DNA of 64,000 nucleotides, from the NCBI GenBank assembly GCA_008632985.1, contig QPGO01000027.1:1-64000 (forward strand), read 5' to 3'. The stretch is from Psammoneis japonica (taxonomy: Eukaryota). Every line of letters begins with the position of its first letter. Position 1 is the first letter of the stretch. Below, piece after piece: positions 21,757 to 56,906 of the stretch. Made by a program: the position numbers and the translations under genes. The notes below the pieces were generated by a model. That model ran no database searches and had not been told where the DNA came from. It saw only the letters and a list, made by a program, of their open reading frames with translations.

Positions 21757-21782
21757 TTCGCCTCCCTAATTGCACATTAGAG

Positions 21783-24887: not shown

Positions 24888-24983
24888 GTGGGCGACAACT
24901 GCTGGACTGGTGTGAATTACTTTGGCCCTTTTTCTGGGCTTCCTGATGTCCAGCAGAGCGCAAGACTCCTCTTGCGGTGCAAG

Positions 24984-26138: not shown

Positions 26139-26174
26139 CTTGAACTTGTTGCCTTCTGTGGTGTGTGTGCACAA

Positions 26175-26553
26175 TGCACCATGCTCGAAGAACGAGTGCA
26201 AACGAAAGTGGAGCGAAGTTCAAAAAAGTGAAAATTGTGAGAATCATTTCTGCGCAATCATTTTGGGTTTCTCCGAACGGGTTCTCAACAGCCTAAACCT
26301 TTTGTGCTGCTCCTACAGACAAAGGCCTTTCGGAGAACATGATCGTGACAACAGATTGTCCGGATGTGATTGACATTGACACATGAGATGTCAACATCAT
26401 CGTACGATCGCATTTGCGATTCTCGACATCCGATCACTTCTGTGTGACTGATCTGCACTTCGTACGAACCCACGATTGACGTGCGATTGAAATGTGCTTT
26501 TATTTGACACATGGACATGCACACACAATGCGCACATGACAACGCACATTGCA
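26175..26553 (-). repeat. 5' LTR (TpA-hypermutated)
   Basis: Colinear with 21378-21756; only 5 TpA remain. Confidence 0.95.
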
Positions 26554-28955
26554 TCCTTGATGTTGATTTTATTTTCATGAGCACAAACAATCCTTCCATC
26601 TCAACAACTCTGCCATGCACAAACATGATGCACCCTCCGTCATGATTGCACAGCCACTTCTAAAAAATGTGACCTCCTTGCAACCAACCAACCAGATTTT
26701 TTAACCACAACTTTGTCTCAAATCACTCAGCAATCACCGTTGCTTTTTCCTCCATTTTTGCATTCTGTTGGAGAATTTTTGCTCCTGCTCCAACCACTGA
26801 GAGAAGTCTTGCAAACACTCTTTTGTCAGAGTGATGTTTGTGTGTGACCAAGTCTTGTGCACAAAACCTGCAAAGTTGAGCTTTGTGCTCCACTTTGCTG
26901 TTTTGCATGTTGGCCAGACTTTCTGCCATCCTCTGTGGCCACCAATGGGATGAGGGGAGCTCGCAGATGGCATTGTTGTCATTGTTGCAGAGAAGATCAT
27001 CTTGAGATGTTCTTGACTGGAACGAGTCATGTGGTTGCCAGGGCTGGCCGCTGAAGGCACAAACACCTGCATGTGTGTGTTTGGGGGGGGGGGGGGGGTT
27101 GTTGCCGGTGGCATCAACTGGCTGGGCTTCAGCTGCAGACAAGCAGATGAAAGCTGCAAAATGACAAGGCTCTTGGTTGACTTTTTCAGACATCAGAGGC
27201 TGGTTGCACCTCTGGCTTTGGCGCACATCGTGCCATGATCTGGGTCGCAGTGGCTGGTCCTTGGGCCATCTTGGGCTGGGCTTGATGATGCTGGCTCTGG
27301 TGTTGAGGCACTTTTGGATGAAACTGCAGACTGCATTGTGTGGCATGGAAATTGCCAGCACTTGAAGGTTGCTGGGCTGCTGGAGGGAGTTCTTGCCAGC
27401 AGCAGCTTTGCATTTGGTTGACTCTCTGACAGAAGCAATGGGTGGGTTTGCCGCAACAAAAGTGATGCAGCCACGAGTGCACAAAATGTGCTCCTTTTGG
27501 GATGAAAGTTTTTGACAGGGAATCCGCAAGAGACACCACTTGTCTACAAACAAAGAGGTCTTGGTTGGCAGAGGGTGGGTGGCAGCAGCAGTTGACAGCC
27601 AAACTCAGACAATGAGCCCAAGCATGTCACTCGAAAAGCAGAGCAGCACAAAAAGGAAGTGATCACCCAGGTTGTGAGAGCTGATCTCCTGTGCTGCTGA
27701 AGGTTTTGAGAGCTGATCTCCTGTGCTGCTCAAGTGAAAAAGTGGCGAGGAAAGAGAAGAGGCCCTGGTGGCTGGAGATCAGAGTGCCAGCAGCTGACGG
27801 TTTTCTGAGGCTGACCATTGCTGACATCAGCTTGGACGAGCTCTGCCTGTGCAGTGAGTTTCTCCTTGCAGAACGTCCAAGAAATTCCCAAACAGCATGT
27901 TCACACTCAACTCCTCAACCCTCATCCATGCAGTCTTTTTCACACTCAACTCCTCATCCCTCATCCATGCAGTCTTTGTGTCGTCAAATCATGTCTTCGT
28001 TGAAATGCACTTATTTGAACGAGAAGTGTGCATGTTCTGCAGTCACAAAGACATCCAACACCCTGATTCAACATTTGACACGCGTGTTGCGCGGGACGCT
28101 GCGCTCTGTCGCACGTGCTGCTGCCCTTCTCAGGACCACAAAAATCGTCTTCGTCGTCATCGTCGTCATCAACATCGTCCCTTTCATCATTGGAAGCTGC
28201 TGAAACCACATTACAAACAACTGTCCTTGATCGGTGCGATCTGCAAGCTGCAGCATCTCCACAGGAAACTGTGGAAAATCCAGCAGAGGACGTGACAACC
28301 AACAAAACACAGAGGAGTCGTAACCCACGACACTTTCTTGGAGTGAATCGCCCATTCCACCTGTGCTCTTTGTGCATGTTTCGTCTGTGTTTGTTGCATA
28401 AAAACCGCAGCATCCGACGCATGCGCCATTGTCAAACCGTCGGCCATCGGGCCATCGGCCAGCAGCAATCTTGCCTGACGACGTGCGCACGGCACGTTGC
28501 TGATTTACCACAGTGTCGCACAGCCAGCATCACAAGCACACACACAGCGAAAGCCCTCTGCCAATTGGCAGAACGCCTCGTATGTAGAAAATGTGCTGAC
28601 ACCTGCACGATCGCTTTTTTTTCTGTCGCTTTGCTTGTGCACACGAAATCTCAACAAACATTTGCAATTCTGACAAGATTCAAGGTGAAAATCGATGCTT
28701 CTTTGCATTTTCCAAGGAGCCATCATCTCACTTTTTCGAGTTTTCGGTTCAAACAAAACGCAAAACGTTCACAAAGAAGCAACAAAAAAGCAACAATTTG
28801 CTTGACGATTTGGGGTGTTCGCACCCCAAGCAAAACAACATTTTCCTTGAGTGTCACCAAAAAATTCCTCTGACGAGTCTCTTCCTTGTGCACACGATTT
28901 CACAATGGGAACACGTCGGATGAATGCGCACAGATACGATGTGGAGAGCTGAACG

Positions 28956-37403: not shown

Positions 37404-37599
37404 GCCACTGCCCACAGTTTACAGTCTTCTAAACAACCAGTTTGCCCTGCAAATGACACACAATCTGAGCATCCTTGTGGCAGTCTTCAGTTGGCTGAGA
37501 GACTCTGTTCCAGCTTGCCAGGCTCAAAACTGCTTGGCTGCAACTGCATTCTCAGCCTCGCAATTTTTCAACATTTCTGCTCTCGCTGCTCATTTTCTA

Positions 37600-38120
37600 T
37601 TTTTACCACTTCTGATCCTGGGAAGGTCTCTTCCAGGATTTCTTTGAATGCCGGCATGTCCTCTGAACCAACTTTGGGATGACAGCATTGTTGTTGCAAG
37701 CCCCAACAACAAGAGCACTCTTCTCTGCTTCAGCAAGCTCATTGCCTCTGAGAGCACCTTTAACTTCAAGTGCACTGCTGCTCCTGCAGTTGCCAACAGT
37801 GTTTTCAGGGCACGGAGGCCGAAGCAACAGCGAAGCTGGTCCCACATTTTGGCGCTGCACTTCAAGAAAAAAGGTCCACAACACTGCCCGTGAGCCCCTC
37901 AGCTGTTGCAACACCTTGACTGCAGCATTGCCTGGGAAATGAGCTTCCCATGTGGGATGACCATTGCAAACAACCAGAAAAGAATCTTCAACTCATCAGG
38001 AAAATTGCTTCGCCCCTCACATCCAGGGTTCATGGCAACGAAGATGCCAACATTTTCATGAAGTTTGATCGATCTGTCAAGAAGTTCAACCTCTTCTTTT
38101 TGTTCAACCAGGCAATGCTG
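37600..38120 (-). pseudogene. Dynein heavy chain AAA1-AAA2 fragment, hypermutated and frameshifted
   Basis: VGIFVAMNPG(C)EGRSNFPDELKILF..AMVIP..LISQAML, (CC)FGLRALKTLL..AG and VIPKLV..DMPAFKEILEETFP match the dynein consensus [21 protein letters not shown] / HYDFGLRALKSVL / VPKLVAED..DVFPG. Confidence 0.85.
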
Positions 38121-41100
38121 AAAATGGTGAGGGGACATGCGGGCTCCAAAAGATGATTGGAATCTGTTGCACACTGTGTTGACAAGTGAAGCCGGTTTGG
38201 AAGAGGAGCAACGTGCCGAAGACACCGCTGCTCGAAAGAACAATGTGGACGGTGTTGCCTCAGCTGATGCCAGTGTGAAACAGACAGCTGGGATGACTGT
38301 GACACAAATGAGTGGTGGCAGCAAACTCCAACACCATGAAATTTCAATGTCTGGAAAAGCACATCGACACCCGCTCTTTCAAAAGAGACAACGGCGGTGA
38401 AATGCACGGCCGGTCATCGGGAAGCATCTGGCATTGGCGGGCGGCCATTTGCAAAGAGCAGGAGCCTTGAGTTCTTCACGTGACTTCAAAGACAGTGCCT
38501 CAAATGCAAACCCATCACAACTGTCCGTGCCTCACCTGGGGTGAGTCTTGAGATGTCCGCAATGGCGTCTTCTGGTTTGATGTTGCGTTTGTCACATGAA
38601 GGCCAAATGAACTCATGCAACTCTTCCACTTTCCAATGCAAGCCATTCCATTGAGGGGTTTCTTCAAAATGTCTGGGCCCAATGCACCCCACATTGTCCA
38701 CATTGAAGGGGGGGGGGGGTTGCATTTGGCACCACCGTTCAACCCCACTTCCCTGTGGCATGAACTGGGGCAGCACTCAATTTGTCAAGTTTGGTTTCCC
38801 CATCTTGGTCATCTTTTGGCGCAGTGTCACTGAGTGCTTCACAAAGTGTTGTCAACGTGCACTGCTCCAATGTTGCACAACTCAGGCAGTCCTTGGCAAA
38901 GTCCCTGGGGAAATTTTGCATGTTTGTGGCATTGACCATGAGAGATCATTTGGGTGCCAAGTTGTGCTTTCTGTGGATTAAAAAGTGAGCTGCAGAAGTC
39001 TTTCCTTGGTCTGTTGGAGCACAAATGACCCAGACTCTCCCTCTGCCATGACCGGCACCTGAGGACAAGGCGAAAGCTCACAACATTGCTTGGGTCACTG
39101 GAGACATCATCACATTTGTGCCTTCAATTCCTGCCACTCTAGCAGACTTTACAACACTTTGTTCACGGTTGAGGTTTTCCTGACACAAATTGAGAGAAAA
39201 GTCCTTGAAGCAATTTGCGCCTTCATCGATCACACTTCCGGCCACCAAAGTCAAGCTCTCAACAACAGAGCAGGATGCCCAAATTGCAAACTTCTGCGCT
39301 GGTGTGATTGCACCACCCCTTCCCCCCTCATCTCTTGTTTCTTCATTTCTGCTCACAGCATTGTGAGCGCGCATGTGTGTGTGGCAAGAGAGGTTGCTTC
39401 CAGAGATCAATTGATCAGTCTGCTGATTCTTTGGGTCAAAACTGACTTGATCATCATTGCTGTGCTCTGCAGTTTGATTGATCGCATTTGCTGTTTGCCA
39501 AACAAATGTCATGCACAAATGACAGAGCAGGTGGCACTTTCTTCTCACTCAGACATGCCAAGAACAAGCCCTTCGGGGGGGGGGGGGGGGCACTGACCAC
39601 GGCAAGACTGCATTTGTGGCTCAGAGTGTGCATGCTGGCAGGCTCAAGCTCAAGAAATGGGCTGGCATGGCGTCTCAATGGACAAATGATTGATGTGCAT
39701 GTCTCAGGAATCTGCTTCTTGTTGCTCCTCTTTTCTTTGTGCCACTTGTTCACATTTTGATGCCGGGACATTGAACAGCTCAAATCCCGCATGATTTCAT
39801 GATTGCTGGTCACACATGACAGTCATGAGCATGCACATGTGCCCAGGCCTGCAATGGCATGGTTTCATTGTCTCCAACATGGCCCTTTTTCACTGCTTGT
39901 CATCACCCCTTTCCTCTTTACAGCACTTCTTCATGTTGCACGTGCCTGCATGTTCAACAGTGTTCAAATCCCACACAATTTGATGCACGCCAGTCACACA
40001 TCTTTGCATTGTGCATGCCCGCATGTTCAACAGTTCAAATCTCACACAATTTGACACATGCCGGTCACACATGTGTGACAGTCTCAACACAAATCTCATC
40101 TGCGTGCAACTTTTAGGACAATCATTCCATTCTCGCATGAAAACTCACCACATGTTGCACATGCAAGATCTGCAAACTCCTGTTGCAACCCGGATGCTCC
40201 ATGAAAACTGTCAGTTCCCAACAACTCCTGTGTGAGTCGACGCAAGCTCATCACATGTTGCGCACGTCAACTGCGAACTCCTGTTGCAACCCGGATGCTC
40301 CACAGCAAACTCATGCACTCCTGCGACCAAACTTGAGTGTCACACACTCACTCACTCACTCACTCACTCACAAACAAAACTTTGATGTCGCTTGCCGGGG
40401 GTGGACAGTGAAAGGCATTTTGACAATGTGCGCGAACATGCTTTTTCTTCTGTTTGTTTGTCATGTGTCATTCCAACCAACCAAGCTTGCTTCAACATGT
40501 CAAACAGAGCAAGGGCGGGCTTGCCGGACAAAACATTGTGCCCCAGCTTGCTGAGCAATGCTTTGAGGTTGGGGACGATGACGACGACCCAGCTTGGAAA
40601 TTCTCTCTGTCAAACTTCCAGCATGACATGGTTGGACTTGCTGCAATGAACAACAAGCTCAAGAGGTGCTCTGCATGGTGCGCCATTGTCTGGGGCTTCA
40701 AATGTCCATGGCTGGACTTTTGCAGCCACTGGCACACCCGCCAACTGCGCTGCAATTTGCAATGTTTTTCTGTGCCTGGGTCAGCTGGGTCTGACTGTTG
40801 GAACACATGCTTGGCATCCCACTGATGACATTGTGCCATGACACTTGTCCATGCCTGTGACAGTTTGGGCTGGCCATTGGAGCACATGCTTTTGGCACAC
40901 TGATGTCTGGGGCATCAACTGTCTGCAGTGAAATTTTGCAGCTGCTGTCACCCGCTTGTGACATTGCAACACTCGCCCATGCCCGGGATGCCACATTTCT
41001 GACCTTTGTGCATCTCATTGCAAAAGATTGCCTGGCTTGGGTGAAAAAGAACAAGGGGCAGAGCAACACTGTGCTCTTGTTGAAGTTGTTTGTCCCTCTG

Positions 41101-42549
41101 TTTTGCCACAGTTGAAATGAGATTGAGAGAACATCCCAGCCCAGTTTTGAGGACTCGCCAAACAGCAGAGGGGGATGAAACAAAGCCCCAGCTTCAACGC
41201 ACAGGTTGTGCACAAGCTCACCAAGACAATGCTCTGGATTGTTTTTCAGAATGCATTGCAGGGCATTGCAGTGCCTTCACCAAAAGTGCCTCCCTTCTTT
41301 CTAACCTCCAGCTGACAAGGCAATTCACACCGCCGTCAGAGGCACAATGCTTGCACTGACATCTGAGTTGGCGCTCACTGACTCTGAACTTCTTGCACCA
41401 TGTCAGGGCATTGTTGCAAGGACTGTTGCACCCACAAGCAGCACAAGCTGACCCACAATGTGTGCTGTGCTGCGGCATCTCTTTGAGAGTGGTCCATCCT
41501 GCAGCAGCAGTGCAGGCGGACCTGACCAGGGTGCTGAAACTGCAAAAACACAAGCAAATGCAGTGGCACCACAGTGTGGTTTTTTTAGTTGCATCCAACA
41601 ATCTGGTGCTTGTTTTGCACATCTTTCCATCATGTGGTTGTGGAGAGGTCACCCGGAATTGAGAAAAGCAAAAAGCTCTGGGACGGATTGATCTCTTTTG
41701 CATGTGACATTTTTGTGGCAAACAGCAGTGCATGCCGGTCTGCTCTCTGCTCCAGGGCCCCACTTGCCGGCACTTTGGTTTCCATTTTTGTTGGTTTGAG
41801 GTGTTTGCAAAAATGAAACTCATGGTGTGGGTGTGCTCACATGTGTTGGTGCATGTGCGCGGCAAAGAAATGCCAAAAGCACTCCATGTGGCAGCTCCGC
41901 ATTGCAGCCATTCTCTTTTTGCATTGTGCACTTTGCTTCCTCATCACAAACAAAAGCCTTTTTTTCAAAACGATTGCAGCTGACATTGAATGAAACAACA
42001 AAGTTGAAGGGCTTGCTTGAGTTTGCTGTGTTGGGTCATGGGGTTTCTGAAAATGGTTGATGGTTGTGACTCCAATGAAGCCCCGCCCTGAAAAGACTTT
42101 CTCAAGCCTTTTGTCCTGTGGTGCTGAGGGTTGTGCCGACTTGCATCATTGCTTCTGCACAACTGCCTGAAATCAGCATGGCAAAAATGCAATTTCTTGT
42201 GGTGCAGAGTGGGTGTGCCTCTCTCTGAGTGGCTTTAAGTTCCTGTTCAATGTCTCTGAAAATCACACACATCAGCTTTTGGCCAAGCTCTCATTTGTCT
42301 TTTCATTTTTGGAAAAGTGTTGAGCTCATTTTTAAAAGTCTGTCATGGTCATTTTGGTCAAAACAAATTGCCAGATCGGCATCCACTGGCGACACTTTAG
42401 CTGTGGCTTGGCACCATGCGCACTGCTGGTGCTGCGCACTTCTGCACACATGCATGCCAGGATGAATGTCCATCCATTGTTTGCTCACTTGAGTGCTCAT
42501 TGCAGTTTGCTGCATGCCGGCATTGGTGCCTGCATTCATTGAGTTGGAG

Positions 42550-42810
42550 AACCAAGAGAGCAGCAAAAAATGGATGGAGAGAGAAACACTTTAAAGTGAA
42601 ATGGCGCCGCTGCAAACACAGTTTGTGGTCTTCAAACCTGAAAATGCAACACTTGCATTGCATGCCTGCTGTGACCTGCCACACCCCTGGCACAAACTTG
42701 CAAGGTGTCTTTCTGACATGGGCTCTGCACTTGCCCCCACACTTTGTCTTCATGTGAGCCTCCAATTCTGGAGTTGGATCCAAGACAAGAAGCCTCCATG
42801 TGACACGCTA
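42550..42810 (-). pseudogene. Hypermutated 3' fragment of the DUF1295-like gene (copy A)
   Basis: Colinear with 49828-50055; reads PELEAHMKTKCGGKCRAHVRKTPCKFVPGVW. Confidence 0.9.
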
Positions 42811-44559
42811 ATCTGACTCAGCAAGGTGCTCTAAAAAAATCATGGGGTTTTTGGTGTCTCAATGGCGTGGCTCTCAGATGTGTTTTTCTTGCACCTCGTC
42901 AATCTGACACAGAGTTTGTCAAAGAAGCATCACACAGGGGTGGCTCAATGGAAGATGAAACAAATGTGCTGCCTTGGCAGTTCTTTTGAAAGAGAATGTC
43001 CCAATCTGTCCTGAGCCCAAAGGAGCCACAACAAGAGTTCACCAACCTGACAAACCTTGTTGCTGATGACGTCATTGATGCAAAGACAAAAACTCCTCTG
43101 TTCAGGAAGAAGGCATGGAATCTGCACAAGTCAATTCTTTGGCACATTGCAGGAGGGGTTGTCTGAGAGCAACATGCCTTCTGTGTTGCATGTTGCATTG
43201 AAGTTGGAGTTGATTCTTGCAGCGTGCCTCTTTTCAAATGCCTCCATGGAGCTGGCATGCTGGAAGGGTGTCATCAGAAGGTGAGGCAGCTGCTGCAAGT
43301 GCTCAACTGCTTGCCATGACTCACGACTGTGCTGCTTTGTGAATTTGAGCACAGATGGAATCAGGGCAATGGCACCCATGTTCCATGTTTGACTGTCCCA
43401 GTGTCACGCCAGCTGCTGCAATGGCTGGGAAGTTGGAAACGAAACAAAAATGTTGTCAATGAAGGATGACAGTTGTCAGAGTCAGCCCATGCATCAGCTG
43501 AACTTGCAGAGGGCTTTGTGCTGACAAACAAAGAGTTCAGCACAGAAGGGAGCCTCTGAACTGGCAATCTTGAAGCCAAAGTTGAGAAGCTTGTCAATGC
43601 CTTTGAAGATGGTTGCCTTGACAATGAAAACGTCATCAACAAGTCCACCTGCCTCTGTTGCAAAGAAGCTTGGTTGGTTGCAAACAGGGCATCAAACTGG
43701 TCAAAACTTCTTGGAAAAGCAGATTTTTGTCATTGGCTGGCGCCACACAAGCCACCAAAGCATGGCTGGAGAGCAACCTGAAGTGGACAATTTTTCATGC
43801 ATTTGATGGGGGGGGGCTGAGATGGCAATTTTTTGGAAGCAGTGGGCAAAACATGAAAATGATGGAAAGTGACTGAGAAGGGGCATGACTTGCAAAACTG
43901 CACTCTGCTTGATGACCCACTGGCAGGCACTCAAAGAAAAAGGGAATGTGGTGGCCACCATTCTTGCAATCAACAGTGCCAACACAATGCTCCAAAGGGA
44001 ATTGCAAAGGAAGAATCACAGCACCAATGCAAGCCACCAAGATGGTGCAAAAGTGGCCGAAGCAGTGCACAACCTGAAAGAATCCACCAAACAAGACAAG
44101 AGTGCCTTTCCAAGTGATGGCGCCTTTCTGAATGAGGGCAGAAATTTTGGAGATTTCAGTGCAGACATTGGTGCTCCAGTGGAAGAAAAATTAAATGAAG
44201 ATTTTGTGTTGTTGGCACATTGCCTGCTCTGGGATGCCCAGCAAGCAACTGCACGACACCATTTGCAACATTCCCAGCAAGCTCATCTGCAAGCAAAGCA
44301 ACGAAAGCAGCATTTGAGACAAAGCTCCATGGGGATGGATGAGTCATTTGCTTTTTGCCATCAATGCCATCAAGGTGTTGGGCTTGACTGAAATGCCAGA
44401 AGATTCACAGCACCTGATTCCATGTGAAAGACAACCCTGCCAAGTGAACATGTTGATGGGTTCCCTTTGAATGGGGGGGGGGGTGTGGATGGAAGGAAAA
44501 AGCAGAGTGCACATTGATGACAAAGCAGAGCTCACTTTCTCCATTGCAGCAAGTCATGT

Positions 44560-46600
44560 TTCTCACGTCACTGGCCTTGCATCCTTGAGTTGTTGGTCTG
44601 CTGATGGTGCTGGTCTTGAGCAAATCTGCAGTCAAGGGAAACACAGCACCCTCTGCAAAGTTGCTCCAACAACCAATCCAATCCTGGGAGTCAACAGCTG
44701 CCTGAGCCAATGCACTGCTTGCCTGAATGTGTTGCCCGGGATTCCTGTCTTTCCATTCCCGCAGTTGTTGCAGCATGGTTTCCATTGTCTTGGGGTTGGT
44801 TCTTGCCTTGATCATCCACTGCCTCAGCTTCTGCAGGGACCGGTGCCAAGTCTGAACATTGTGAGCATCATTGCATGGGTGACTTGCCCCAGAGGTGCAG
44901 CATCTTGTTAACTCCACAAGGCCCTGATGCGTGTTTGGTTGGCTGCCCACTCTCAAATGAAGGGTTTGAGGTTGCCAGTGGCACACGTGCCTCTGGGCAC
45001 TTCAACCAACTTTTCTGACATTCAATGTGGAGAGCCATCCTTCAGCCATCCACCAGCAGAGCAGTTTCCTCTCATCAGTGGCCTGTTGAATGTTGTTGGT
45101 GCCAAACCAGATGTCATCCTCTTGTCCCTGACACAGAAGGCCCACATCTTGCCTTGCACCCACTGTTGTTTGGCAACAGTCACCATCTCTGCCAATCTTT
45201 GCTTGGCCTTGGCATCCACATCCACATTGATCTGGGATGGTTGGTCCAGGTCTTCACAGGTGACACTGATCATCATCCATTGAACAGGTGACTTGTCAAT
45301 CTCCACCAGTGTGCAGCAAAGAGGACACTGCGCTGTTTGTGGTTGACGATCAGCTCATGGCCCAGGTTGCTGTGCATGGTCCATGCTGAAGTGCTTTTTC
45401 TGTTGAAGTGGGAGCCATCAAACATGGCTGTCACCACACCTTGAGAGATTGCCTGTGCCATTTCCATCCCATTGTCATCATTCTCAAAATCTTTGACAAG
45501 CCACCTGATGTTGCCAGGAGGGTGCAGGTTTCTGCTGCCTGTTGGAGATCAGTCATTGGCAGCTCATTGAGGTTTGCTGCCTCTTGAGCAATTCCCATTG
45601 CTGCCACAGCTGCGCTGCTGTGCCACACTTTTGTTCAGATCAAGTTGTCTGGCGGGGGTGACCAGTCTCCCCTGCCAAGCGTTGTTGTCACTGTCCTGCT
45701 CTGGTGGTGGGCTGGCCTGGAACTGGTGTGGAGCATGCCCCTGTGTCCTCTCACACACGTTTTCAAATGTGCTCCTTGTTGGCGGTGCTCAGGAAGCAGA
45801 GCCACTTGTCACTCTGACTGTTGGTTCACTTGTGCAAGGGAGTGTTGATGACAGAATTGCAAGGACTCAATGCTCTCTTGAGAGCCTCCTTCCACCATCT
45901 CCAGTCATCCTGGGGCAAGCTGCCTTGTTCAGGCCAGTCAAGCTCCACTGGGGCATGGATCATGAGATGGCAACTTGCCCTCCCAGTGATTCTGCGGTGC
46001 CTTCCAACCCCATTCCTTGCCAGCCACTGTGTCCAAGGTGGAGCACACCCACAGATGAGTCTGCACCAATTTTGGTTGAGCAAGTCAGCTTTTCATGAAG
46101 CCCACTCTGTGGAGCTCTTCTTCAATGAGGAGCTTGTTGTTTTCTCTCCACAGCGGCAAAGTGGGAAGATCAGTTTCTGTTTGGAAGTTGTGTGTTGACA
46201 TGAACTTCCACACATCCTTGATCCACATGTGAGCAGCCAGGCAGCAAAAATTGTCACAGCTGTTCTCAAGAAACTGGCCAGGCAGCCCCACCTCCAGCTG
46301 GCGCTGATGCAGATTTGCTTTGATTGACTCTCCAGCAACAGCGCCCAGTTGAGAGTGCTTCAGTGTGGCTCCAATCTGAGCGATTGCCTTGGGGTGGTGT
46401 GTGGGTGGTGTTGACTCCAAGGCCCTGGCATGCAGTTGGACTGCACACTGTGTCCCTTGTCATGTCCCTGCATGTTCCAGCACCAGGGGGTGGACCATGC
46501 TTGAGCACTGGAGCCATGATGTGTTTGGCTTGGTTCTTCAAGACAGTCAATGCTGGGGAGAGGATGCTCTCTGGGGTTTTCATTGCCGCTGTTGTTGATT
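44560..46600 (-). mobile_element. Degenerate non-LTR (LINE, Ambal-like) retrotransposon: RT C terminus, RNase H-like region and C-terminal domain
   Basis: Remnants IMAPVLK..(C)QGLG, LEVGLPG..WIKDVWKF..LWREN, AMFDGSHF..SAW, SQINVDVDAKAK and SQDWIG.WSNFAEG. Confidence 0.65.
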
Positions 46601-47900
46601 GTCAAAATGATGCACACCAGGCCCCCCTTTCAATCAACCATCTGTGACACACTCACCAAAAATGAAATGTGGGAGCCAACGGCTCTTGGCACCAAAATCC
46701 CACTGCAGCACACATTTGCCATGCCACACAATGGCAGTTTGGCCACAATGTTTGGGAAAGGGAAAGCAGTGTCTGTGAGACAAACATTGTGGAAAAGTTT
46801 GAGCAAAGTGGCATCACCCAAGACCTGGATCTTGCCTTTTTGAAAGGTCATGTGGAAATCAGCAAGTGCGCTTTGTTTGCCATGGAAGATGCAACCCAAA
46901 CAGTCATCATCTTGCAAACAAGCTGCCCCAAAATCAAGCTGCACTCCCCACAAGTTGCCAACAAAGCTTCGACTCTCCCTTGAAACACTCTGTTGTGAAA
47001 GAGCTGCCAAGAAAAAAGGTTGAGAGAGAGAGAGAGAGAGAGAACAAAGGAAAGGAGGCAAAGAGACAACACACTGGCCCAGCCAACAGCAAAGATTCAA
47101 TGCAAAAAAAAAAGAACAGGTGCAAACAGCAAGAAGCAGAACATCAAGTGATTGTGCTCATGTGTTCTGTGCAGCAATTGCAACAGCACACTCGTGGCTT
47201 TTTTGCAACGAATGATGCTGCTGCTCTTTGTGCTTCCAGAGTCCAGAGCAAATGAGGCACACTGTCACCCACAAGAGCTGCAGTGTCCTTTGGGAGCAGA
47301 TGAAAAAAAAAAAGAAAAAAAATGGTGAGTGAGCACTCAAATGTTTGGTGCAGCCATTCCAACAGCACAGCTGCACCTTTCCCCTCCCAGCGATGCTCCT
47401 GCTCTTCATTCTTCCAAAATTTCAAAGAGAAGAACAACCACTGCCATGTGTGAAAGCCATGGTGTCCTTTGGGAGCAGATGCAGAAAAGCAATGGAGTGA
47501 AAAAGTGTTCGTGCATTCACACAGCAACCCCAACGACACATTTTCGTGCCTTTTTTTCCGCCACAATGCCGCCGCTCTTCTTTGTTCTTCCAAAGCTCCA
47601 AAGAGAAAAAAGCCATCGACTCAGAGATCCCAAACCATGAGTGCTGCAACCAATGGAGTGAGCTGCAAAAGACCCCGCGACAGAGCATCTCATGCCCCAT
47701 GAATGACTGACACACCATTCCATGTCAACTCACCAGAAAGTTGGTCGCGATTTTGTTGCATGCAAATTCGACGTACAATCTACACAGTGCACACATCATT
47801 TTTGTGCAGGACATGCTGGAGTTCAGCGCGCAAACATCATCGGCTCGTACACGAGATTTTTGACCACCCCGCTGCTCATCGTCCAGAAGCAGTACACACT

Positions 47901-48108
47901 TGGGGGAAGTCTCCAGCCAGCTGCTGGCTGAAGAATTTTGTGTAGAAATTGTACTGAAAGAATCTGTCAATCTGTGCGTTAGGGGGTTTTGGTGAACGCT
48001 GGACAGACTCGTCTTCTTTTGCCTACGTAAAAATTGTACTTGCAAAACCCCCAAACGCACTGACGATCAGACTTTTTTCAGCCAGCAGCTGGCTGGAGAC
48101 TTCCCCCA
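47901..48108. mobile_element. 208-bp MITE
   Basis: Perfect 32-bp TIR tgggggaagtctccagccagctgctggctgaa, an internal inverted pair gtgcgttagggggttttg / caaaacccccaaacgcac, and flanks cact / tact. Confidence 0.9.
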
Positions 48109-48173
48109 TACTCCCGCAACGCAGCATCGTTCCTTTTCTCGTAGTACGACACCCGCTGTGCAGAGCATTCAAC

Positions 48174-49154
48174 ATGGAGAACACAGACGTCTTTCTTTTG
48201 GTGACGGGTCTTATCCTTGATCAAGGACTCCTCGAGGTTCGCGATCTAGGGGCGATGATGAATGTGAGTAAGGATGTCTGTTCCTCGATCCGCGAATCTC
48301 ATAGTTGGGAACTCTATCTCGACAGAAAACGGCTTGGTCTAGCTCCTCCTTACGGGAGGATCTGCACAGAGGGATGGAAAGGACCATACATTCCGGACGA
48401 TTACGACGTCCGTGATCTTCACATTCCTCCCCGACCACGTGCAAGAGGTTCACGTCAGCCAGATCGTTGGACGTATTACCCCCATCGCAATGACACTCGT
48501 GCCCAGGGCCATGTCTTGGTGAAACAGCCAAGTTTTTACCTTCATCGTTTCAATCCAGAGACGGGTGCCTTGTGCGACCTCTTTTATCCCGCTCATGAAG
48601 ACCCAGGAGGGATTCGAACAGATGTGTACGTTCAACGTGACTTACCAATCACGTGTCATGCCTGCGGTGTAGTTTGTACAACGTACCCAGGTTTGGTGCA
48701 GCACTGCATGACTCTCGATCACCAAGTCGCCTCCGTACCGCCTGAGAGGCGCCTTCCGTCCTACTTCAACGACCCAAGGAACAAGGCGGATTATGAAAGG
48801 AAAACTCCTTTTGAGAAGGTAAAAGCTTGCGTCATCTACAAGCAGAGAGTGCTTGACTTTCTTCGCGCTCCCATGGACTCTGCGGGTCTCCAAAACATGG
48901 AGGATCATCTGGATTGGATCACTAGAGGCTGTCATGGAAACGAGTCCCTCCTGGAGAATTGTACCATTGAACGGGTTACCAAGGCGTGCGTTGATTTCGT
49001 GGTTGAAGAATTTCTTGAGTATGGCATGGAAATCAGGGGATACACCCGTGATGTCATTGTTGATGGTTGGGGAAGATTTGAACATTACGGGAGTGGCAGC
49101 TCAGGTTGCCTCTTCGACATGGTGGTATACCCCCGCTTTTTTTACATGGAGTAG
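48174..49154 (+). CDS. Protein with an N-terminal F-box-like segment and a C2H2 (matrin-like) zinc finger
   Basis: Intact 326-aa ORF with normal Tyr content, LEVRDLGAMMNVSKD..W and CHACGVVCTTYPGLVQHCMTLDH. Confidence 0.65.
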   Translation: MENTDVFLLVTGLILDQGLLEVRDLGAMMNVSKDVCSSIRESHSWELYLDRKRLGLAPPYGRICTEGWKGPYIPDDYDVRDLHIPPRPRARGSRQPDRWTYYPHRNDTRAQGHVLVKQPSFYLHRFNPETGALCDLFYPAHEDPGGIRTDVYVQRDLPITCHACGVVCTTYPGLVQHCMTLDHQVASVPPERRLPSYFNDPRNKADYERKTPFEKVKACVIYKQRVLDFLRAPMDSAGLQNMEDHLDWITRGCHGNESLLENCTIERVTKACVDFVVEEFLEYGMEIRGYTRDVIVDGWGRFEHYGSGSSGCLFDMVVYPRFFYME

Positions 49155-49938
49155 CATAAGCGGTTCGCTTTTTTGATTTGTGCCGCGATGCTTATTCGTG
49201 TCATCCTTTTCACGTCAAGCGCACTTCACAAAATAAAAGCAACGGCAAATAAGTAATCAGTACAAATGGTATCGTCCACATCCTCGGCCGAAACCACGTC
49301 TCCGACTAGTATAGGTGCCTCTTCGACACTTTTTTGCAGAGTGGGCATCGCACGAACATCCTGCTCGTCAACGGAATGTCGCAAATATCAGAAGAAGCAA
49401 GTAGCACCTCCTCCACCGACCAGACTCATTTTCGAACATGTAACGACTCCTCCGATACATTCTCATACCTGTTAAGTGAAGGCGAGTGCTTTGTTAATGT
49501 TTCTGTTACCAAAGTCTACAGTCTACGTGCGAAGTCGATGCTATTTTAATATGGCATGGGTGACAACGTTTTTCGTGTGTGAAGGCTGACCGACAGAGAC
49601 AAGGAAAAGACGATCGACTAGTGAAGTCCAGAACAAACACTTTAGCACTTCAAAACCTTAGCTTGGTGGACGTTCGATTTTGGCAACTGGATGTCTTCGT
49701 TTCAGTGTACTATCATGACATACTTCGGAATGTGAAGCAGCGCGTCATGTTCACAACCTTGCCTTGCTCTCTAGTGGAGTAGGTCTACGGTACTTTTTGC
49801 CAGATTCGAAAGCCTAATCACTGCAAACCAAGAGAGTAGCGAAAAATAGATAGAGAAACACTCCCAAAGTAAAATGGTACCGCTACAACTATAGTTTGTG
49901 GTCTTCAAACCTGAAAATGCAACACTTGTATTACATAC

Positions 49939-50728
49939 CTACTGTAACCTACCATATGTCTTTCTAACATACGCTTCGTACTTGTCCCCATACTTTGTCT
50001 TCATGTGAGCCTCCGATTCTGGAGTTAGATCGACGACAAGAAGCCTACATACGAATACTGTCATTATACCCCAAATCACCGACCGAGTTGCCAGCGTAGC
50101 GGCGACCTCCTGTAAGAAATGCCCGGTATGGTTAATATAACGCGCCATCCCGAATAAACCCGTGGTATGGAGTTTACCCTTATTGATAGGTTTACGCTTG
50201 AACGCTAAACGCTGCAGCTCCGCACCCTGCTGAAGCACTCCCGCCAGCACGGCAATAGCCGCTGCTAGGTAGTCCAGTCCACTTAGCTCAGCTGGCAGTC
50301 CACCGTTCATTGTCGAGAGAATCACATACGGCCCAATGTGCAGCAAAATTAGATGGAGGAGACCAACAGCAATCGCTGTGCTCCATGGCATCGGCCCGCC
50401 ACCATTGATGGTGAATTGACCGACCGCCCAGCGAATTCCGTACAAAGTGCTCATTGCTGCATAAAGTTTGAGCCGATCGCCCTGAACGGGTGCAGTGTTA
50501 CAGCCAACGCCAAACGCATGGCAGAAGTACTGCACGAATCGTTCTCCTGCGTTATTATCGAGGAGGTAAAAGATAACTGGACCGATGAGAGAGTGGATTA
50601 TCGCTCCGGCGATCTTTGGGCCAGTGCTGAGTGAAGATCACTGGTGCTACGTGATTGGTTTGGCGGGGAAAGACGGTGACGCTGCTGCCAGTGGCAGATT
50701 CTTCCTTTGCTTTGGATGATGAGGGCAT
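49939..50728 (-). pseudogene. DUF1295/steroid 5-alpha-reductase-like membrane protein (copy B; not TpA-mutated, but carries a 7-nt insertion and a 22-nt deletion)
   Basis: AELQRLAFKRKPINKGKLHTTGLFGMARYINHTG and E.HMKTKYGDKYEAY. Indels were seen by alignment to copies A and C. Confidence 0.8.
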
Positions 50729-51446
50729 GATGATAAGACTTTGCTACCGCTCCCCTGCCGATTATCGCAGACACATCGTTCTCTCCCTCTCTCTCCTGCT
50801 AGTCTCTCGAATGATGATGTATGAAAATACTGTAATAAGATCGCGCTGCAGCCTGGCCGTCGCACACTGCGGCTGTCACAGCTAGTAGAGGGACCATCAG
50901 CACGGCATCTTCACTGCAGGGCCCTGGCCATGGAGAGTGGAGAGTGTTCTTAATGTTGCTGTTGTCAAAGTCTACAGTCTGTGTGCCAAGTCGATGCACA
51001 ACGGACATGAGTGAACACCATGATGAGCAATGTTTGACGGTCATGGATGAGACTTTCATTCTTGACTTTTCCACCTGAAAGTTTGAGCAATTGCCCAAAC
51101 AACTTGTGCCCACCATTTGCTCAAACTTGTGCAAGTTTGATCATCAGCGGATGGTGGAACGGCACTGTCGTGTGAAGAACGCAACTCTTGCACAGGTGTG
51201 ACTGCACAATTGGACCTCAATGGCCGGGGATTGAGCCAAACAAGGGTGGACTTGTGGAGTGGGCCTGGAGTTGGAGCGGGGCCCTGTTGCGACAAATTCA
51301 ATGGGAGGAGAGCCAAGGGTGGAGGAGGCAGCAACGTCCCCTGGTTCTTTGGATTCTCATCCCATTTGAGAATGTTCTTTGCCAGGAAAGTCATGCAGTT
51401 GTGATTGGAAGACCAGCGAGTTGGGAGGAAATGTTTGCCACACACA

Positions 51447-51707
51447 GCCTGTTCCAGCTCCAGGTGACCCGCTTTTCATCACGCAAGAGGCCGATTTTCT
51501 GCACAGTTTGGCACATTGAACTCCTTCAATTTTGATCGTTTCGAGAATTGAAAGGTGAGCGCACACCCAAAAATGCATGTGAAGTGTGCACTTGCCCTTC
51601 GATTTGGCAAAAAACGGATTTTGAAAAAGTTCAATGCGCCAAATGCACAAATTGCCAAATGATGGGAATCATCAAACCCGCACGGATCACCTGGAGCTGG
51701 AGCAGGC
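51447..51707. mobile_element. Foldback MITE, mutated
   Basis: TIR gcctgttccagctccaggtgacccg / cggatcacctggagctggagcaggc, plus an inner inverted pair ttggcacattgaact..tcaa / ttgaa..agttcaatgcgccaa. Related sequence at 53560-53850. Confidence 0.8.
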
Positions 51708-52033
51708 CACATGGGGCAATCATTTCCCACAGCAAAGGAGGGCACCATTGTTCAAGTTACAAAACGCGGTGAGATGGAGACACATGGGGAGAGCCGCATG
51801 GCAAAAACGACATGTGGCAGGTGACAAAATTGTGCTGGCTGAGTCAACTTGCATGTCAACATGCAAAATTGTGCCTTGGTTTAAAGTGCAACATTGGCTG
51901 TCTGCATGCCCACATGTGGCACTTGCATCAAGCAATCAACGACATGAGACAAATCCAACTTTTTGCAATGACGGAAATTTTGTCATGCCGGCGCACATCT
52001 TGGATCATTGCACAGCCAGATGGCCACAGCACA

Positions 52034-52068
<35 letters not shown>

Positions 52069-52159
52069 AGGTGCCACTGCCACTGCAAATGAAGTCTGCA
52101 GTTTTCAAAACCAGCTTGCCCTGCAAACCAACACAATGCGTGCGATGCGTGCCCAACCC

Positions 52160-52935
52160 ACCATGCTCCAGACACAAACTTGCAAGGTGTTTCTCTGATG
52201 TGTGCTGCTCACTTGCCCCCACACTGTGTCTTCATGTGAGCCTCCAATTCTGGAGTGACCCAAATCACTGACCATCGCTGACTGAGTTGCAAGTGCAGTG
52301 GCAGCCTCTTGTGAGAAATGCCCAGCATGGTTGACACAACATGCCATCCCAAACAAACCTGTGGCACGGAGTTTGCCCTTGTCAGTGGGTTCATGCTTGA
52401 ATGCCAAAAGCTGCAGCTTGCCCCCCTGCTGAAGCACTCCCACCAGCATGGCAAGAACAGCCACTGCTGGGCAGCCCAACCCACTTGGCCACTTGGTTCA
52501 GCAGGCAGTCCACCATTCATTGTCGAGTGAGTCACACACAGACCCATGTGCAGCAAAATGAAAAGGAGGAGACCAACAGCGATTGCCATGCTCCACAGCA
52601 TTGGCCCACCACCATTGATGGTGAATTGACTGACTGCCCAGCAACTTCTGCACAAAGTGCTTGCTGCTGCATGGGGAGTTTGAGTCGATCACCCTGAGTG
52701 GGTGTGGTGCCACAGACAGCACCAAATTTGCAGCAGAAGCACTGCACAAATCATTCTCTGATGTTGCTGTCAAGGAAACAAAGAGCAACTGTGCTGACAA
52801 GAGAGTGGGTTGCAACTCTTGCAAACTTTGGACCAGCAAAGATTGCTGGCACTGCATGGTTGGTTTGATGGGGAAAGACAGCAACAGCGCCGCCAGTGGC
52901 AGATTCTTTTTTTGCTTTGGATGATGAGAGCATGA
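52160..52935 (-). pseudogene. Hypermutated copy C of the DUF1295-like gene
   Basis: Colinear with 49950-50730: MARYINHTG->MACCVNHAG and KYGDK->QCGGK. Confidence 0.92.
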
Positions 52936-55249
52936 TGAGAAGAATTTTCTGCTGCTGGCACATGGCAGCACCTGTTGAGAAGCTCAAAACCAAAAGGAGG
53001 GCAGCTCCACAAGTGCACTTTTGTGGCCATTTGTGTGCCATTTTTCATGCGATGGCCTGATGTGTTGGAACACATGCATTCGCAACATCTTTTTCACTTC
53101 AAGCGCACTTCACAAAATGAGCACAGCAACATTTGGCAATCAGAGCAAATGGCGCATGTTGTTTGTTCAATCTTGAAGAGCTCAAATTTCTTGTTTTTGT
53201 CATGATGAAGTGCAAAGATTCAACACTGGCAAGGAGAAGGTGATGACAGAAGGCAACATCAAACATTGATGCCAGTCACAGTGCCATGTGCTTTGTTGAG
53301 CTCAAACAATGCTCATTGTCAACTTTTCAAATTTCCAAGTGGGGGGCATGGAGAGCCAAGAGAGCTGCACTCAAGGCCACAGCACAGGCTCTCTCTGTTG
53401 CTCAAAAAGGTACCGCTGCAAACACAACTTGCAGTCTTCAAAGCTGGTTTGGCACCTGAAAATGCAGCAGCCATGTGCAGTGTGTGAGCGCACCCAGCCC
53501 CTGCCATGCTCCCAGTGCAGAGTCATGAGGGGCTGTGTGTGGCACATCAGAGCTGGAGGCCAGCTCCAGCTCCAGGTCCAGATGGCATGCATGGGTGTGC
53601 GATCCACCAGTGGCCCAGCTTGCATTCTTTGGCACAACAAGTTCCTTCAAATTTTTGCTTTTTTTCCAGCTTTTTTCTAGAAACAAACTGAGGTGCAAGT
53701 GTGCACAAAACTCTCCTTTTTGTGTGCACTTGCATTTTGATTTTAGAACAAACAATCAACCAAAAACAAAAAAAGGCTTGTTGCGCCAAGTGCAGTTTTG
53801 AGAAATTGTCCTTGTTTGCATGAAAAAAGTGGTGAGCGCACACCCACTTTTTCATTTTTTGGAGGGTTGCTCATGGGCAAGCCAGTGCTTGCAGATGAAA
53901 GCACGCTTCCTTCTGGCAACAAGTGCCGTCCTCAGGCTGCATCATGTTTTTCAAGTGTTTCCAAACCCTCAGAAACTGCACCTTGAAATTGCACTCTGCC
54001 CTCTCTGGCAAGCACAAATGCACTCAAAACAGCTGTTTTTCACAGCGATGCTGACTCAATTTGTGCAAATCATGCAGTCTTTCCACTCAATTTCTTGCCT
54101 GCCTTTTCAATCAATGTTGTGTGGGCTTTGTCAGGCATTTTGTTTTGCAACAACAGCAGCAATGAGCCAAGCACCCCACTTCATTGAAATGCCCAGCTTT
54201 GTGTTGAAGAGATCAGCAGAGGCCACTCTTCACACAACATGCAGCCAGAGTTGGGCTCTTGGAAACAACCAAACAAGTGTGGTTTCTCCCGAGTCTCCAA
54301 GACAATCTTTGTTCTTTTTGCATGGACTTTTGAACAACTGGCAACATTGCCCAAGTGTCATTGCATGTGCGCACATCTTCCAGTGCAGTGCCTGACGACA
54401 GCGCAGCAAGGTGGCTTGCAGACACAAAGACCTTGAAGATCACCTGAATTTTTGGCTCCAGTGATGGCTCTCAACATCTCCAGCTGCCACCTGTGGTGCT
54501 TGTCTTTAACCTTTCCCCCTCTTCATCTGAAAATCTTCTTCATTCTTTTGCTGACTCTGTTGTGATGAAAGCTGGCAATGGCAAGCTTGGCTTTCACAGT
54601 GTGTCAACATGGCAGTGCAGCCCTGTGCAGTGCAAGTGCCAGCACAGCTCAGGAGCTGCCTTGTGCCAGCCAGCAGTGTGATCCAGCCGCAGCTTGAAAA
54701 GGTCTTTCTTTGCTTTGTCTTCTGGAAACTCTTCCTTTGAGTGCCCCATCAGAGTGCTGCTCTGCAAAAACATGCACACACCAGCACAGCTCAACCCCCT
54801 AAAATTCTTTTCATTGTCCTTGTCACTTGACAATGCTTGCACCAAGTGGTGGTTGTGCCACACCCCAAATGTCACTTCAAACAAAACTTGCAGTGGCAGT
54901 GCATTTGTGGGCTTGCACAGAGGCCAAGCTTGAGCAACAATGGCCTGTGCCCAAGGGCACAGAAGAGCTCAGTTGAGCACTCATCTTTGTTGGAAGGAAG
55001 CTTGGGAATGTTGTGACCCTTGCCAGTGGCATCTTCAGAATGACAGTGTTTTGTGACATCACAGCACCCGTTGTGCCAAGTGCAAATGCTGTTTTGACAA
55101 TTTTTTCATCAACTTTCCTTCTTGTGGCAAATTTTTTGTCAACCTTTTTCCTCCAAGCACCCTCTGAGATGATTGAAGGAGGCGGCAATTTTTTGTTTTG
55201 CACCAATTCTCTGCCAAAAGAGGAGGGTTGGTTGTGCACACAAACTGGG

Positions 55250-55645
55250 CAAACAAACCTTTTGACGCTAAAACTTCAAACTCCTCTCTTCTTTCCTGGC
55301 AGCTGCTGTTGTGCACAGCATTGCTGAAAGAAAGAGACAAAGTTTCTGCCATTTTTGAGTTGCAACAATCTAATGCTTCAGTGTCAGCAGCACTGTTCTC
55401 ATGAAATTGAAGCATTGCACTCTTCAAATGGCTGTCTTTAAAGCAGCCTTTGTGCAAACAAACCTTTTGACACCAAAATTTCAAACTCATTTCTTCTTTC
55501 GAGACAAAGTTTTCTTTAAATCATTGCCTGCCATTTTGGAGTTGCAACAATCCAAAGCTTCAGAGTTGGCAGTGCTCTTCTTGTTCAATTGAAGCATTGC
55601 ACTCTTCAAATGGTTGTCTTTGAAGCAGACTTTGGGGCCAAACAG
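55250..55645 (-). repeat. About 195-bp tandem duplication, apparently of coding origin
   Basis: Two copies reading (C)FKD[SN]HLKSAMLQ..EALDCCNSKMA. Confidence 0.75.
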
Positions 55646-55847
55646 CTCATCACAAAAATCATTGTCTTTCACTCTAATGTGTCTGAGTGAGAAACATTTT
55701 GCTTCAATGGTGCATTGCCAGGACAACTCAAGGGCTCATTGGAGTTGCCAGCTCCATTTTACAAAGTGCAACAGTGTTGTCTCAGTCATTTTCCACTGGC
55801 CTCTCTGCCTCCAATGACCGCTGAAACATTTTAAGCCAGGAAGGGCA

Positions 55848-56906
55848 TTGGCCAGCCATGTTGCCACATCTCTTGCCTTTTTGCCTTTGCTGCCAGCTGT
55901 GCTGAGAGAAGGTCACGCCGACACTCCATCACACCTGTCATCCAGACACTCAGATCCAAGCTTGGTGAGATGGAACCCTCCAGCAGGTGCTGCTTCTTGT
56001 CCGGGGTGGATCCACTGCAGCAACAATGTGAGACAGAGCACTGCTTTGTTTTTCTTGGACACAAAAACTGAAAGACCAAGCTCTGTTGCATTAAGTTGTC
56101 GGGGAGGTGCTGTCGCATTGGTGGGTGGGGAGATGATTGCGTTTGGTCAGCATCTTGCGGGTGCTTTTTTCTCGTTGGTGTCCATGATGTTTGGCTTGGC
56201 CTGCAGGTTTGCGCCCAAAAAGTCTGCACGACTCTTTTGTGGTTTCAACGACAAGGACAAGACAACACGAAGAATTTTAATTCGATTTGTTGGCTCTCTT
56301 GCTTGTGGAATCAGTTTGACTGCTGCGCTTGGCATTGCATCCGAAGTCAAGGCGCCAGGTCACCTTCCCGCGGTGCCTGAGATTCGACAAGCATTGGGAA
56401 TCGGCGTTCTTTCTCAAATTTTCTTTCCATCCCAGTGTCTCTTCATGGACCCACCTTCAAAGCTTCGATCAACCAAAATGGGTTTGAGTGTTGCTCTCAT
56501 TGAGAGTTTGCTTCTGGTGCTCAGTCTTTCAACTGGAAAGCTGTTGCCCGATCTGTTCATCACGTGCGATCTAGCCGCAGTGTCGTTCTTGAGCCTGTTG
56601 TCATTTTTCAAGCCAGCTGCTGTCTTTGAGGAAGACCAAACTCCATCTGCACATGAAAGCATGTTTGCTTGGCTTGCCGCTGCACGCAAATTGACACAGG
56701 CTGTCCTGTGGGCGTCCTTGTGGAATCCCAAAACAAACCCATTGCCGTCGGTTGCACTCGCTTCTTTGGCGTGGGTGGCAGCGTTGATTCACATTGCATT
56801 TATCGGAGGGGATGTAAAGGAATGTGGCGCTTCTGTTGTGGCCCACATGGCCATGATGGCATCCGGTTTGGTGGTTGCTGCGGGAGGTTTGCATCTGCTG
56901 GGATGA
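55848..56906 (+). pseudogene. Multi-pass membrane protein gene; frame open but Tyr-free, probably hypermutated
   Basis: 352-aa ORF with many hydrophobic helices, an RGG-type motif and no Tyr, inside domain 4. Confidence 0.55.

Follow-up and report, generated by a model that had tools for sequence, protein, structure and literature searches.

Three copies of a DUF1295-family gene

We analysed a window of 64,000 nt from the diatom Psammoneis japonica (contig QPGO01000027.1 of assembly GCA_008632985.1, positions 1 to 64,000 of the forward strand), in which a membrane-protein gene of the DUF1295 family occurs three times within about 10 kb: as copy B, which has a normal content of TpA and CpG dinucleotides, and as copy C and fragment A, from which TpA has been stripped. 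This arrangement had been proposed in a first-pass annotation made from the sequence alone, and blastn found the three copies at the places given there. B 50075-50751 matched C 52274-52956 (74.8% identity over 690 columns), B 49946-50025 matched C 52177-52256 (76.3% over 80) and B 49826-50050 matched A 42550-42799 (76.5% over 251); with transitions ignored by purine/pyrimidine recoding, identity was 93.8% for B-C and 87.5% for B-A. Copy B was assigned to Pfam DUF1295 (PF06966) with an E value of 3.2e-13 and 50.2 bits against a cut-off of 20.4. Its 232-codon open reading frame (ORF) has 366 relatives at E <=0.001, 45 at <=1e-10 and 10 at <=1e-30, one named relative being that of the cryptophyte Hemiselmis andersenii. 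The features of the locus and its surroundings are listed in Table 1.

The fates of TpA and CpG were counted on MAFFT alignments with B as the reference (782 aligned columns with 197 mismatches for C, 241 columns with 48 mismatches for A). The part of B aligned to C holds 40 TpA, none of which is kept in C, where these sites read CA (n = 19), TG (n = 15) or something else (n = 6); likewise, none of the 23 TpA aligned to A is kept (13 TG, 7 CA, 2 CG and 1 TC). TG or CA, the product of an A>G or T>C transition, was thus found at 34 of 40 sites in C and at 20 of 23 in A, while the other dinucleotides were changed at 240 of 686 positions in C and at 50 of 206 in A (Fisher P = 4.5e-18 and P = 2.4e-13, respectively, for TpA versus other dinucleotides). 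The picture of one spared copy beside two copies stripped of TpA therefore holds, with 40/40 sites changed in C and 23/23 in A, and so does the conversion in A of every TpA of a 32-mer that the first-pass annotation had quoted (7/7). That account had left out CpG, yet CpG has been erased too: only 2 of 50 are kept in C (20 TG, 20 CA and 8 other) and 1 of 8 in A, where 2 read TG and 2 CA. The conversion of 40 of the 50 sites in C to TG or CA is the signature of methylation-type CpG decay.

Neither TpA>TG/CA nor CpG>TG/CA (scored from B) accounts for 117 of the 197 mismatches between B and C; these consist of 44 transversions, 68 other transitions and 5 positions with CpG in C versus TG/CA in B. 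With transversions at 5.6% of the 782 columns, the B-C pair is old, not young. All three copies go back to one cellular DUF1295-family gene, as old and local paralogues that arose at the DNA level; A and C are not retrocopies, because A retains a homologue of the intron of B and both sit in long depleted flanks. The suggestion that the targets extend beyond transposable elements is borne out accordingly, A and C being copies of a cellular gene and not transposons.

Table 1. Features of the DUF1295 locus, contigs of run X1 matched to it, and other features of the window
Feature	Position	Strand	Description
Copy B, DUF1295-family gene	49939..50728	-	ATG at 50728, stop TAG at 49941-49939; normal TpA and CpG
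7 extra nt in B vs C	50623..50636	-	frame shift between the ATG and the 232-codon ORF
22-nt deletion in B	49956..49957	-	piece kept in A and C; encodes conserved C-terminal motif
Intron behind the stop codon of B (3' untranslated region), in island	49821..49938	-	118 nt, GT-AG; 11 TpA
Upstream/promoter of B, in island			245 nt; 11 TpA
Copy C	52160..52956	-	dead copy; 0 TpA, 7 CpG, in-frame stops, indels
Fragment A	42550..42803	-	homologue of the intron of B and about the last 100 nt of coding sequence; 2 TpA, 3 CpG
Island of normal dinucleotide composition	47774..50973		3.2 kb, bounded by first and last TpA
398-codon ORF	47958-49154	+	in island, tail to tail with B
Intergenic part of island	49155-49647		493 nt; 25 TpA
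MITE-like repeat (miniature inverted-repeat transposable element)	47901..48108		208 nt, 35-nt inverted ends (97%); keeps 6 TpA and 6 CpG
Depleted block containing A	38000..47773		TpA observed/expected 0.00-0.10, CpG 0.12-0.45 per 1-kb bin
Depleted block containing C	50974..56000		TpA observed/expected 0.00-0.09
Ty3/gypsy long terminal repeat (LTR) retrotransposon	21380..26554	-	LTRs 21380-21757 and 26177-26554; order reverse transcriptase, RNase H, integrase
X1 record 1	42000-42649		1 other letter in 650 bases; depth 64.4
X1 record 2	42626-46940		6 other letters; depth 60.1
X1 record 6 (island, B)	49899-51321		1 other letter; depth 63.8
X1 record 7 (C)	52097-56500		1 other letter and 1 gap; depth 67.5
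ABC1-kinase ORF	2481-4124		best identity 61%; named proteins among the 120 best matches listed all diatom
Dynein heavy-chain AAA_6 fragment	37593-38378	-	E 7e-15; inside or at edge of depleted block; 2 TpA in 801 nt
O-methyltransferase domain fragment	59184-59585	-	E 1e-8; inside or at edge of depleted block; 2 TpA in 402 nt

Read support

Two sequencing runs, X1 (0.93 of sampled words) and X2 (0.20), which belong to one study and the same sample, possibly that of the window's assembly, were drawn on for the region 42000-56500, to which their k=31 contigs were matched. No difference between the assembly and X1 was found inside A or C, and the sequence of A, B and C is real in accurate reads and not a base-calling artefact. 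A misreading of both strands is hard to reconcile with the 4-kb X1 contigs at full depth, since mixtures of TG and CA at each former TpA would break such contigs. Copy C is represented in X1 by one contig, with no other look-alike at an identity of at least 80%; A and C nevertheless began as duplicates.

Where the assembly and X1 disagree in the block containing A, the change is mostly of the TA/CG/TG/CA class, as in the hypermutation itself: TG in the assembly versus TA in X1 at 43176, CG versus TG at 44566, and CA versus TG at 45219-45220 and 46339-46340. These four may reflect a process still under way that had different results in the two alleles, or they may be noise in the consensus. Record 3 of X1, a contig of 1363 nt at depth 68, aligns to A at 42674-42798 with 27 differences over about 125 positions and, after 232 other letters, resumes in 46677-46841 and in further pieces up to 48113; a diverged paralogous copy of the arrangement, without the intervening 3.9 kb, is thus present elsewhere in the genome.

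Direction of change

The first-pass annotation had proposed an outgroup alignment as the check on whether TG/CA might be the ancestral state. For this purpose, B was aligned with 14 outgroup proteins (P0001-P0014) and C was read codon by codon in the frame of B. The same residue was encoded at 129 codons, 16 had gaps and 87 differed; among the differing codons, the outgroups favoured B at 67 and C at 10, with a tie at the remaining 10, so TG/CA is not ancestral. Tyr66, Tyr216 and Tyr223, present in 13/13 or 13/14 outgroups, have become Cys or His in C, and Arg69 and Arg166 have become Cys. Conserved Tyr, Arg and His gave way in C to Cys, His, Leu or a stop, which is the kind of residue loss predicted from loss of TpA and CpG; the two stops in the frame of B (CGA>TGA and TAC>TGA) lie at codons 33 and 220. 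Judged by these protein comparisons, B is the copy that holds the ancestral TA and CG.

Coding state and transcription of copy B

B had been taken for a spared host gene, a view that needs to be qualified, for B was spared by the TpA process but is not intact: a 7-nt insertion breaks the frame behind the ATG, and a 22-nt deletion has removed a C-terminal motif. The frame of C is continuous where B has its 7 extra nt, and the spacing of the N-terminus of outgroup P0001 agrees with C. At the other end, codon 228 encodes Pro in 13/13 aligned outgroups and in C and Tyr in B, and the best matches of B all stop at query residue 227 of 232. Both changes are present in gap-free contigs of X1 and X2 (records 6 and 13). 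Record 13, an X2 contig of 1033 nt, matches 49648-49820 and 49939-50798 with 0 other letters and skips the 118 nt in between, so that B appears to be transcribed and spliced; X2 is labelled 'DNA?', and its transcript-like reading rests only on this exact 118-nt GT-AG skip. B probably represents either a pseudogene that is transcribed or a truncated version. Over the depleted blocks X2 gave no contigs and only 9 of 30 bins with any depth, a result not used as evidence of silence.

A spared island between depleted blocks

Dinucleotide odds ratios (observed/expected) were computed for the 64 bins of 1 kb that make up the window, and these fall into two compartments. TpA observed/expected is <=0.14 in 30 of the 64 bins, in which the odds ratios of TG and CA are raised to 1.2-2.3 (mostly 1.5-2.1) and that of CpG ranges from 0.07 to about 1; in the remaining bins TpA stands at 0.2-0.8 and CpG near 1. 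G+C lies at about 0.44-0.54 in the two compartments alike, as would follow from an offset between TA>TG/CA and CG>TG/CA. Only 15 TpA in total were counted in 38000-47700. In the block containing C, about half of the CpG is kept at 51-52 kb and the ratio is 0.10-0.20 farther on; in the 1-kb bins of 51000-52000 and of 22000-30000 alike, TpA is nearly gone while CpG is half or fully retained. This suggests that TpA erasure precedes CpG decay: loss of TpA with much CpG left at these two places, and loss of both in the old blocks, agree with a rapid TpA step after which CpG decays slowly.

Between the blocks that contain A and C lies the island, which holds the 398-codon ORF and B. Its borders are sharp: in bins of 100 nt, TpA is at 0 per 100 nt for kilobases outside and at 2-11 inside, and the TpA process is thus confined to discrete regions. 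Contigs of X2 cover 48168-49080 and 49648-50798, and the island reaches about 175-400 nt past their ends. Since the intron, the intergenic stretch and the promoter of B all keep their TpA, selection at the protein level is not the cause of the sparing; the broken frame of B likewise means that purifying selection on the protein is not what keeps its TpA. The first-pass annotation had argued that the escape of one copy favours position over homology. The data agree with it, as a whole region including its non-coding parts was spared. There is, on the other hand, nothing to show that duplication was the reason for the hits on A and C: the copies are old, and the depletion extends over entire blocks of 5-10 kb around them.

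Two repeats point the same way as the sparing of the island, namely to position and not to homology. The MITE-like repeat, which lies in the 5' region of the 398-codon ORF, was spared with the island even though it is multi-copy, being found in 6-7 X1 contigs with unlike flanks at both ends. One paralogous X1 contig is without the repeat (joint 47896>48113). The Ty3/gypsy element carries two LTRs of 378 nt that differ at 31 of 378 positions, and 25 of these 31 differences have TpA in the left LTR versus TG/CA in the right one, the other 6 being of other kinds. TpA numbers 30 in the left versus 5 in the right LTR, and CpG 24 versus 23, which shows that TpA erasure proceeds much more rapidly than background change and is separable from CpG decay. 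TpA density in this element is normal only from 21380 to about 22250, the spared part comprising the left approximately 870 nt (3' LTR and integrase end), and is low in the remainder. The border near 22250 therefore lies inside a single copy, and the process is not bounded by the repeat.

Proposed explanation

In our judgement, A, B, C and the blocks around them are probably explained by a domain-wise, position-dependent hypermutation of TpA combined with a slower decay of CpG. In the multi-kilobase blocks that hold A and C, a TpA-specific process of A:T-to-G:C transition would remove every TpA, with TpG or CpA as the outcome depending on which strand was hit, and a slower CpG-to-TpG/CpA decay, as expected from cytosine methylation, would remove nearly every CpG in the same blocks. 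B would lie in a 3.2-kb transcribed island that the process did not enter. What is hit would depend on the domain, that is on position and probably on the state of chromatin or methylation; neither duplication of a sequence nor its being a transposon would decide. By analogy with the chemistry proposed elsewhere (see below), the most likely reaction would be an enzymatic deamination of adenine at 5'-TpA-3' in DNA, giving inosine that is read as G. In three comparisons TG and CA outcomes alternate and do not form runs of one strand (P = 0.21, 0.21 and 0.98), which means that both strands were hit site by site. There is thus no indication of an editor that worked processively on single-stranded DNA, or of RNA as an intermediate.

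Comparison with known systems

So far, TpA-specific hypermutation has been described once, in a 2026 preprint on the chlorarachniophyte Bigelowiella natans (Mettrop et al., bioRxiv 10.64898/2026.01.13.699255, 2026; drawn on throughout for the accessible part of its text). Mutation-accumulation lines of that species gained 231 mutations in two regions of integrated viral DNA; 230 of them were A>G or T>C changes, each at a TpA, and the rate came to about 6e-7 per site per generation. Of the two regions, the larger, derived from a nucleocytoplasmic large DNA virus, is single copy and transcriptionally silent, and an ADAT2-like adenine deaminase was proposed by the authors (bioRxiv 10.64898/2026.01.13.699255). 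The present case resembles it in that A>G/T>C changes fall on TpA only, yield TpG or CpA according to strand and are confined to discrete regions. A long-term footprint given for B. natans, low TpA with high CpA and TpG in clusters rich in reverse transcriptase and DDE domains, is comparable as well. The two organisms differ, B. natans belonging to the Rhizaria while ours is a diatom. There, moreover, a rate was measured in lines, on a target in which TpA is 1.8-fold depleted, whereas here only the end state is seen, and this is saturated, with 0 TpA over kilobases. Also unlike what is stated for B. natans, CpG erasure has joined in here, and dead copies of cellular genes are covered.

Repeat-induced point mutation (RIP) of Neurospora and other Pezizomycotina is a genome-defence process that is triggered by duplication and as a rule mutates both partners; it changes C:G to T:A, mainly at CpA, so that TpA is created, and it depends on methyltransferases of the RID/DIM-2 type in the premeiotic stage. 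The accessible text of the preprint names RIP as a comparison (bioRxiv 10.64898/2026.01.13.699255), and a RID-like DNMT4 is stated to be present in many diatoms (PMC9998398, likewise for its accessible part). Dense transitions in non-genic or repeated DNA, a dinucleotide preference and dead copies left behind are shared with our locus. The direction, however, is opposite, TpA having been destroyed here (C has 0) with a polarity backed by the outgroups. Nor were both partners mutated: B keeps 40 TpA and 50 CpG with its intron and flanks untouched, and a border runs through one element.

Decay of CpG through 5-methylcytosine would account for the conversion of CpG to TpG/CpA in C and for CpG observed/expected of 0.1-0.2 in the old blocks. 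In Phaeodactylum, transposons are CpG-methylated by DNMT5a (PMC9998398); TpA finds no mention in the accessible part of that article. This decay covers only the CpG half of the pattern, however, as TpA is gone from the young gypsy element and from 51-52 kb with CpG largely kept, and it follows that the TpA process is separate from CpG decay and faster. The ADAR and APOBEC enzymes of animals produce deamination-type transitions with a neighbour preference and are aimed at selfish DNA (bioRxiv 10.64898/2026.01.13.699255). They differ in that they act on RNA or single-stranded cDNA and leave strand-biased runs, whereas here intron-bearing DNA duplicates and their flanks were hit, with the strands interleaved; A aligns to the 118-nt intron of B and is thus no retrocopy of the kind that a model of RNA editing would call for.

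Alternative explanations

A homology trigger similar to RIP would have duplication mark the copies, with B escaping through transcription or through the loss of lineages in which B was mutated. It is true that the mutated sequences are duplicates, that another A-like copy lies elsewhere (X1 record 3) and that LTRs and other repeats were hit. We nonetheless hold this account to be unlikely, as the intron, 3' flank and promoter of B are untouched, which protein selection cannot explain, and the reading frame of B is already broken; besides, the border inside one gypsy element, the multi-copy repeat left unhit in the island, the lack of any other look-alike of C at 80% or more in X1 and the single-copy state reported for the B. 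natans target (bioRxiv 10.64898/2026.01.13.699255) all speak against it. Age in place of position would be decisive if the island with B had arrived recently, by transposition, by conversion from an active copy or by introgression, and had not yet been exposed. Such an arrival might be read from the two derived indels of B and from the high-depth repeats that flank the island (47808-48291 and 51196-52163), and it is in our view quite improbable: the lineage of B is by definition as old as that of C (5.6% transversions) and has kept its TpA throughout, wherever it was located; erasure, on the evidence of the gypsy LTR pair, is far faster than the divergence of B and C; and the island extends past the X2 contigs by about 175-400 nt before its borders are reached.

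There is very little likelihood that a genome-wide neutral bias acts against TpA and CpG, with genes keeping both only by purifying selection, since the non-coding DNA of the island has a normal TpA density, the borders are sharp, and the LTR pair has 25 of 31 differences at TpA, with 5 of 30 TpA left in one LTR and the other unchanged. What such a bias would account for is that both depleted dinucleotides end as TG/CA, with G+C near 0.5 in both compartments, and that C and A are pseudogenes. An artefact of sequencing or assembly, in which modified bases at TpA or CpG in silenced DNA were miscalled as G or T, might be recognised in the site with TG in the assembly versus TA in X1 (43176) and in the two with CA versus TG; yet X1 contigs at the same full depth as in the island (60-67) agree with the depleted sequence over 4.3 and 4.4 kb apart from 6 and 1 other letters, which largely refutes it, although X1, as possibly the window's source sample, is not fully independent. 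We consider an artefact extremely improbable. Hardly conceivable, finally, is that RNA editing of the ADAR type, with its 5' U preference, followed by reverse transcription put edited transcripts into the genome. A-to-G change with a 5' T neighbour does fit the ADAR preference cited in the accessible text of the preprint (bioRxiv 10.64898/2026.01.13.699255), and retrotransposons are among the mutated sequences; but A has the homologue of the intron of B, both A and C lie in long depleted flanks and so are no retrocopies, both strands were hit in an interleaved fashion, and one LTR of an integrated element was hit and the other not.

Weight of the explanation and implications

Several points weigh against position-dependent TpA hypermutation. 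The flank to the left of the spared end of the gypsy element is old depleted DNA, so distance from a gene alone does not define position, and the MITE-like repeat may be too young to have been hit. The depleted blocks are taken for silenced chromatin, which we infer from composition and from one transcript contig. The age of the trio (44 transversions in 782 columns) hides when A and C were hit, and homology with B may have mattered initially. In the three-way overlap of the copies, which is short and was read from the alignment, A and C agree in their TG/CA outcomes at about 5 sites and disagree at 3, a pattern that would fit either one shared mutation history or two.

Going further, we put forward tentatively, and with some doubt, that a chromatin-guided editor operates in diatoms as in B. 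natans and deaminates adenine at TpA in duplex, silenced DNA, following the state of the domain and not homology. Were this the case, the editor would have saturated about half of the window and would stop within a few hundred bases of active promoters, and any sequence in such a domain would be killed, be it a transposon, a captured gene piece or a redundant paralogue. It would then amount to a defence common to the supergroup of Stramenopiles, Alveolata and Rhizaria (SAR), mechanistically unlike RIP, APOBEC or ADAR. The locus is in this respect a natural experiment on the targeting rule, with three copies within 10 kb, two of them saturated and one untouched including its intron and promoter; the contrast among the three, together with the gypsy border, speaks for a process that responds to position or chromatin state and not to repetition. 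A full-text literature search found no description of TpA hypermutation in diatoms, and what is new here is the argument that the locus makes for position over homology. If genome-wide, the phenomenon would reach into the diatoms, which are a major group of phytoplankton and for which genetic tools exist, and the island borders and young elements with TpA left would be clean sites for assays.

Other features of the window

The window is eukaryotic, with few introns, and the named matches of its ABC1-kinase ORF, among the 120 best listed, come from Skeletonema, Cyclotella, Thalassiosira, Fistulifera, Seminavis and others. A family search of the 59 ORFs of at least 110 codons around A and C revealed fragments of other cellular genes, namely the dynein heavy-chain and O-methyltransferase pieces of Table 1, and 0 transposon domains; 30 shorter ORFs on the minus strand of 36.9-42.6 kb gave only a second, weak dynein piece and no transposon domain. 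The notion that the depleted blocks are transposon graveyards is therefore not tenable on this domain search, though the erasure itself may hide such domains. No second copy of the neighbouring 398-codon ORF was found in the window by tblastn.

Long stop-free frames of up to 365 codons without a family match occur in 38000-47700, 51000-56500 and 59000-64000. They arise because TAA and TAG have been lost, and annotators could easily mistake these long ORFs for genes.

An old tandem duplication with a periodicity of about 180 nt (47131-47443 and 47312-47618) lies at the left edge of the island; its units are 66% identical, or 85.6% when transitions are ignored. It sits beside one of two (CT)n-like runs, at 47019-47053 and 52035-52068. 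In the purine/pyrimidine-recoded blastn the short matches were noise, with the exception of B-C, B-A and one further pair: an 85-nt piece on the 3' side of B (49188-49272) recurs at 53072-53155, just past the 5' end of C, with 75% identity, or 90.6% with transitions ignored, and may be the trace of a larger duplicated unit.

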